Below, piece by piece: positions 1-1,133 of a stretch of 1,133 nt of DNA (the first letter of the stretch is position 1; each line of letters opens with the position of its first letter). The DNA is from Escherichia coli (GTDB taxonomy: Bacteria > Pseudomonadota > Gammaproteobacteria > Enterobacterales > Enterobacteriaceae). The notes under the pieces are model-generated. The model saw nothing but the letters and a program-made list of their open reading frames with translations. It ran no database searches and was not told the DNA's origin. The translations under genes and the position numbers were made by a program. Where the stretch lies: NCBI RefSeq assembly GCF_003334355.1, contig NZ_QOWP01000096.1; one strand, 5' to 3'.

Positions 1-1133
1 AAAAACTGGATCGACAAAGAAGAATATCCGCAATCCGCAGCCATCGACCTGCGTTGCGTAAATATGGTTGCCGATCTGTGGCATGCGCCTGCGCCGAAAA
101 ATGGTCAGGCCGTTGGCACCAACACCATTGGTTCTTCCGAGGCCTGTATGCTCGGCGGGATGGCGATGAAATGGCGTTGGCGCAAGCGTATGGAAGCTGC
201 AGGCAAACCAACGGATAAACCAAACCTAGTGTGCGGTCCGGTACAAATCTGCTGGCATAAATTCGCCCGCTACTGGGATGTGGAGCTGCGTGAGATCCCT
301 ATGCGCCCCGGTCAGTTGTTTATGGACCCGAAACGCATGATTGAAGCCTGTGACGAAAACACCATCGGCGTGGTGCCGACTTTCGGCGTGACCTACACCG
401 GTAACTATGAGTTCCCACAACCGCTGCACGATGCGCTGGATAAATTCCAGGCCGACACCGGTATCGACATCGACATGCACATCGACGCTGCCAGCGGTGG
501 CTTCCTGGCACCGTTCGTCGCCCCGGATATCGTCTGGGACTTCCGCCTGCCGCGTGTGAAATCGATCAGTGCTTCAGGCCATAAATTCGGTCTGGCTCCG
601 CTGGGCTGCGGCTGGGTTATCTGGCGTGACGAAGAAGCGCTGCCGCAGGAACTGGTGTTCAACGTTGACTACCTGGGTGGTCAAATTGGTACTTTTGCCA
701 TCAACTTCTCCCGCCCGGCGGGTCAGGTAATTGCACAGTACTATGAATTCCTGCGCCTCGGTCGTGAAGGCTATACCAAAGTACAGAACGCCTCTTACCA
801 GGTTGCCGCTTATCTGGCGGATGAAATCGCCAAACTGGGGCCGTATGAGTTCATCTGTACGGGTCGCCCGGACGAAGGCATCCCGGCGGTTTGCTTCAAA
901 CTGAAAGATGGTGAAGATCCGGGATACACCCTGTACGACCTCTCTGAACGTCTGCGTCTGCGCGGCTGGCAGGTTCCGGCCTTCACTCTCGGCGGTGAAG
1001 CCACCGACATCGTGGTGATGCGCATTATGTGTCGTCGCGGCTTCGAAATGGACTTTGCTGAACTGTTGCTGGAAGACTACAAAGCCTCCCTGAAATATCT
1101 CAGCGATCACCCGAAACTGCAGGGTATTGCCCA
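1..1133 (+). CDS. gadA/gadB: Glutamate decarboxylase (PLP-dependent, Gad family), internal fragment truncated at both ends; about residues 82-458 of a ~466-aa protein
   Basis: Seen in sequence: frame 1 (codons at 1-3, 4-6, ...) is open across all 377 complete codons. The translation contains the PLP-attachment motif S-G-H-K-F (lysine codon AAA at 583-585), the GSSEAC phosphate-binding segment (130-147) and the long C-terminal segment ...[37 protein letters not shown]. From memory, the translation is identical or nearly identical to E. coli GadB/GadA over the whole window. The last 2 nt (1132-1133, 'ca') are the start of a Gln codon; about 8 more codons and the stop lie beyond the window. Paralog assignment (gadA vs gadB) is not possible here because the residues that differ between them are N-terminal, upstream of the window. 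Confidence 0.95.
574..588 (+). other. PLP cofactor attachment site: S-G-H-K-F motif, Schiff-base lysine (Lys276 in GadB numbering) at codon 583-585
   Basis: Seen in sequence: tca ggc cat aaa ttc at 574-588 in the coding frame encodes SGHKF. Established knowledge: in group II PLP-dependent decarboxylases, including E. coli GadB, the lysine of this motif forms the internal aldimine with PLP. The residue number is derived by aligning window codon 1 (K-N-W-I-D-K-E-E-Y) to GadB residue 82. Confidence 0.85.

Follow-up and report, generated by a model that had tools for sequence, protein, structure and literature searches.

An internal segment of Escherichia coli gadA carrying the pH-responsive beta-hairpin of glutamate decarboxylase

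The stretch of E. coli DNA analyzed here over its full 1,133 nucleotides (hereafter the window) is almost certainly an intact internal segment of chromosomal gadA, the gene for the E. coli PLP-dependent glutamate decarboxylase, and carries the pH-switch hairpin of that enzyme. The gadA product serves glutamate-dependent acid resistance, and the element in the window is wild-type, well characterised and already known. Identity, coordinates, paralogue and conservation were computed here, and the conformational mechanism comes from the structural and biochemical literature on a protein of identical sequence, by way of later papers in which the crystal structures are summarised (PMC12961736, PMC10133459, PMC11357613).

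Gene identity and reading frame

All 377 complete codons of the window (nt 1-1133) can be read in frame 1 of the plus strand, with no stop or frameshift. When the window was placed on the full gadA coding sequence of a genome 100% identical to it, it ran from the first base of codon 82 (nt 1) to the second base of codon 459 (nt 1133). The open frame, together with DNA and protein identity, places the whole window (1..1133, plus strand) inside the gadA coding sequence, of which it comprises codons 82-458 plus 2 nt of codon 459. Full-length glutamate decarboxylase A (GadA) has 466 amino acids, and the gadA coding sequence of strain 90-3040 has 1401 nt. Five complete E. coli genomes contain an annotated gadA that matches all 1133 nt at 100% DNA identity. 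The window was matched in every one of the 5426 complete E. coli genomes searched, and the median genome has two such places, as the gadA/gadB pair would lead one to expect. Some genomes had up to 4 matching places with short queries, or 10 with the whole-window query, and five or six of ~10,800 gad matches in the E. coli collection were found on plasmids.

Over residues 82-458 the protein encoded by the window shows 100% identity to three chains with crystal structures, 2dgk_A (GadB), 1xey_A (GadA) and 1pmm_A (GadB), with E ~1e-269, indicating that the hairpin is unaltered and that chance is not an issue. The full-length protein from a genome 100% identical to the window scored 693.4 bits (E = 1e-208) against the NCBIfam equivalog TIGR01788 (glutamate decarboxylase, EC 4.1.1.15), for which the cut-off is 380.4. 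Against the next family, MfnA, full-length GadA scored far under that family's own cut-off.

The hairpin, the active site and the pH switch

The beta-hairpin of E. coli glutamate decarboxylase is defined as residues 300-313 (PMC12961736; PMC10133459). A first-pass annotation made from the sequence had located it at nt 655-696 with residue numbers that it called approximate, and translation and codon placement bear out that position. On the full gadA coding sequence the numbers are in fact exact: in phase, codon 300 opens at nt 655 and codon 313 closes at nt 696 (655..696, plus strand; the pH-responsive beta-hairpin of the PLP-binding domain in PMC12961736, PMC10133459 and PMC11357613). The annotation had also described the hairpin as lying fully inside the window and unaltered, and had proposed a comparison with a reference; all 14 residues are identical to positions 300-313 of PDB 1pmm, 2dgk and 1xey. 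Published crystal structures of the identical sequence indicate that residues 300-313 would fold as a hairpin. An AlphaFold2 model was of too low a quality to show this fold (mean pLDDT 50; residues 239-339 below 50); the 34 sequences aligned for it were all close relatives (71-99% identity), which is the probable reason.

Other residues that matter for catalysis and for pH dependence also lie in the window. The PLP-lysine motif S-x-S-G-H-K is present, including both His275 and Lys276, and the codon of Lys276 (AAA, 583..585, plus strand), placed by sequence and numbering, encodes the lysine of the S-G-H-K motif that forms the Schiff base with PLP (PMC12961736). Near the start of the window, the segment from Asp86 (nt 13-15) to Glu89 (nt 22-24), the residues of which were checked (13..24, plus strand), has been implicated in the pH dependence of bacterial Gad; Asp86 has a role in that dependence, and Glu89 and His465 mutants have been used (PMC12961736).

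Three elements of the enzyme respond to pH, namely the first 15 residues, the hairpin at 300-313 and the last 15 residues, or C-tail (PMC12961736). For the identical protein, activity is reported only below about pH 5.5-6, together with a spectral change from 420 nm to 340 nm (PMC12961736). As the first-pass annotation had stated, a penultimate His reacts with the Lys276-PLP aldimine: it is His465, which attacks the Schiff base to form an inactive substituted aldamine (PMC12961736). In the mechanism drawn from these reports, the N-termini would be helical below pH ~5.5, the hairpin would lie over the active-site entry, the C-tail would be disordered and the enzyme would be active. Above pH ~5.5-6 the C-tail would become ordered, shift the hairpin slightly and enter the active-site funnel. 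Deprotonated His465 would then attack C4' of the Lys276-PLP Schiff base, and the resulting inactive substituted aldamine would be reversible.

The sources differ on what the hairpin itself does. One describes it as covering the active-site entry at acid pH (PMC12961736), whereas a review has it helping to occlude the site at neutral pH, where it touches the partner subunit's C-terminus and contributes steric hindrance (PMC11357613); both concur that the hairpin is one of three pH-responsive elements. The first-pass annotation had credited the hairpin and the tail jointly with closing the active site at neutral pH. That statement comes near the wording of the review (PMC11357613) but is looser than the account in PMC12961736, in which the tail and His465 autoinhibit and the hairpin is a responsive neighbour. 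Covalent autoinhibition is the work of the tail and His465, not of the hairpin. In lactobacillar GADs (L. brevis, L. plantarum), substitutions in the hairpin shift the pH profile and broaden the pH range (PMC10133459).

Conservation of the hairpin in E. coli and in related enzymes

Among E. coli genomes, DNA identity around the hairpin falls to as low as 93% over 161 nt. We considered whether this variation represents protein variants and rejected the idea, as all of the differences are synonymous. Three divergent E. coli alleles differ from the window over its span at 47, 24 and 19 nt, of which 46, 23 and 19 are third codon positions, and 4, 4 and 3 of these differences lie within the 42 nt of hairpin codons; none of the three alleles has an amino-acid change over residues 82-466. 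Silent changes are thus tolerated in the hairpin codons (up to 4 of 42 nt) while amino-acid changes are absent from the alleles examined, a pattern that fits a functionally constrained element. From these comparisons the hairpin appears to be under strong purifying selection. The most divergent gadA allele, in strain MFDS1019527 (NZ_CP169309.1; L004 64-1464), encodes an identical protein with 47 of 1133 nt different, which may reflect either purifying selection of unusual strength or an origin of the allele by recombination.

Beyond E. coli, we compared 34 proteobacterial Gads that are 71-99% identical to the query. Eight of the 14 hairpin positions are invariant in these homologues (F301, V303, Y305, L306, G307, G308, G311 and T312), D304 and F313 are nearly invariant, and positions 300, 302, 309 and 310 vary conservatively. 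Two short beta-prone arms that flank the invariant Gly-Gly would give this segment the look of a hairpin turn. D86 and E89 are invariant in the 34 homologues as well, as is His465, which sits inside a variable tail ending F/Y-x-H-(T/S/N). Lys276 is kept in 33 of the 34. The sole exception, the cluster P0072 annotated as 'glutamate decarboxylase [Edwardsiella ictaluri]', has Leu at the position of Lys276 together with A272L (ISLSGHLFGLA) and retains the hairpin and His465; if real, the Lys276 to Leu change would leave a catalytically dead enzyme.

More distant Gads with solved structures keep a Y-L-G core, with the remainder of the hairpin diverged. PDB 5GP4 (468 residues; the Lactobacillus brevis GAD according to PMC10133459) belongs to the same fold family, and its hairpin, VFKVSYLGGELPTM, is identical to that of E. 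coli at 8 of 14 positions including Y-L-G-G. Its alignment to the E. coli protein stops at residue 445 of 468, however, with no counterpart of the E. coli tail aligned. PDB 7X4Y/7X51, a 481-residue bacterial Gad, is likewise a homologous PLP-domain enzyme with an alignable hairpin, but the hairpin of 7X4Y has diverged further in sequence (SFSVNYLGANITQV, 6 of 14 positions identical to E. coli). The length of 481 residues agrees with 7X4Y/7X51 being the Bacteroides thetaiotaomicron GAD described in PMC11357613. That enzyme has a pH-dependent N- and C-terminus, a hairpin nearer the substrate site and an oligomeric state that changes with pH (PMC11357613).

Paralogue, C-terminal tail and opposite strand

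By its DNA the copy is gadA, not gadB. In K-12 the two genes differ at 31 nucleotides and at five amino acids (residues 3, 5, 6, 9 and 22). Three sites that are diagnostic for the paralogues in K-12 fall within the window, at nt 399, 456 and 936, and the assignment follows from the window having the gadA base at all three. Compared with K-12 gadA, the window has a single difference, an A for G at nt 228 (CTA instead of CTG, Leu157) that is silent; K-12 gadB also has G at this position. Gene order was read in one of the five genomes with a 100% match, that of strain 90-3040, where it runs treF - ccp - gadA - gadX - gadW - mdtF, the same order as around gadA in K-12 MG1655. Relative to E. coli GadA (PDB 1XEY; K-12 b3517), the segment therefore shares an identical protein over residues 82-458 and, in the 100%-identical genome, the ccp/gadX neighbourhood, and departs from it by the one silent nucleotide and in nothing functional. 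The first-pass annotation had taken GadB as its frame of reference, a choice that stands for the protein and fails for the gene: GadA and GadB are identical over residues 82-466, including hairpin 300-313, Lys276 and His465, so structural work on GadB (PDB 1PMM, 1PMO, 2DGK, 2DGL, 2DGM, 3FZ6-8) applies directly. GadB, from studies of which the pH-switch mechanism is known, is encoded at the paralogous locus pqqL-gadB-gadC and differs from the window by three further silent nucleotides.

An origin of the window from gadB, upstream of gadC, would leave the enzyme segment and the mechanism unchanged, and we consider it very unlikely. The window protein is equally that of GadB, with all five K-12 amino-acid differences confined to residues 3-22 outside the window, and the 161-nt hairpin region taken by itself has 100% matches among annotated gadB genes in some genomes, which shows that alleles of the two paralogues overlap across strains. 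Against such an origin, the full window has the gadA state at three of three diagnostic sites and one difference from K-12 gadA versus four from K-12 gadB, all five of its 100% matches are annotated as gadA, and in strain 90-3040, where gene order was read, the match is flanked by ccp and gadX. A literature search on gene conversion between gadA and gadB yielded incidental mentions of the terms only. On the opposite strand, the longest open reading frame outside the sense frame of the window (178 aa with a GTG start, 574..1110, minus strand) overlaps the hairpin codons, and its length is what would recommend it as a real overlapping gene. There is next to no chance that it is one: in synonymous-codon shuffles that preserved the GadA protein, the antisense stop-free stretch averaged 234 aa, with 88% of 2000 shuffles reaching or exceeding the observed 185, and the frame has no NCBIfam match at E <= 0.1, is unannotated in every genome examined and is accompanied by no promoter-like site in a scan of the window. 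Given the shuffles and the missing family match, we rejected it as a by-product of the GadA sense frame. Equally, the gadA reading could conceal a source copy that is defective outside the window, for instance by deletion, by insertion of an IS element or by a C-tail that is cut short or altered, so that the plug would be missing or the gene a pseudogene. Residues 1-81 and 459-466 do fall outside the window and lesions of this kind occur in the E. coli population, but 377 codons run through the window without stop or frameshift, the five window-identical genomes all encode the full 466-aa protein, and in 5242 of 5431 records the best-matching place shows 99% identity or more over the last 119 nt of the coding sequence, all of which makes such a defect exceedingly improbable.

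The ORFs listed for the other frames of the window are of no importance, and the window harbours neither an RNA nor a regulatory element. An Rfam search of both strands at E <= 1 returned nothing, and a terminator scan gave 2 weak matches on the minus strand (nt 380-364 and nt 40-28) where 0.9 +/- 0.9 were expected, which is at chance level. Outside the window, 13-58 nt past the gadA stop (L001 4171-4216), there is a long perfect inverted repeat, AAACCGAATGCCCAGC ... GCTGGGCATTCGGTT, with an A run ahead of its second arm, and to judge from these features it looks like the transcription terminator of gadA.

The intact gadA segment reaches into the C-terminal plug. With the C-tail defined as residues 452-466 (PMC12961736, PMC11357613), numbering places the first half of the plug, P452-A458 and 2 nt of Q459, at 1111..1133 on the plus strand. 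The tail is cut after ...KLQGIA, as noted in the first-pass annotation: A458 is the last complete codon, so that residues 452-458 are inside the window and the eight residues 459-466, including His465, are beyond it. That annotation had expected a ...QQNSFKHT-stop ending about 30 nt downstream. The ending was found in five of five window-identical genomes, all of which encode the same 466-aa protein, WP_000372240.1, although the distance is 25 nt: in the 100%-identical genome that was read, these nucleotides complete ...GIAQQNSFKHT-TGA, with His465 penultimate. Taking the identical genomes as a proxy, we infer with high confidence that the C-tail is intact in the source copy and retains His465.

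Two damaged copies were seen in other strains. In E. coli TUM10008 (NZ_CP135658.1, 2480903-2482812) a gad copy is in two pieces with an IS1A insertion between them. In E. coli NWU_4 (NZ_CP123008.1; L007 1501-1584) only the last 84 nt of gadA are left, annotated as a partial pseudogene; this remnant is adjoined by yjeJ and gadX instead of following ccp, suggesting that a deletion or rearrangement removed almost all of the gene. A lesion just past the window that altered or truncated the C-tail and removed His465 would make the source copy a natural GadA variant active toward neutral pH, resembling the engineered H465A or C-terminal-deletion mutants. The likelihood of this is minute, and nothing in the window itself suggests such a lesion.

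The value of the result is in annotation: the window can be described as gadA codons 82-459, in which Asp86, Glu89, Lys276, the hairpin and the initial half of the C-tail are all wild-type.
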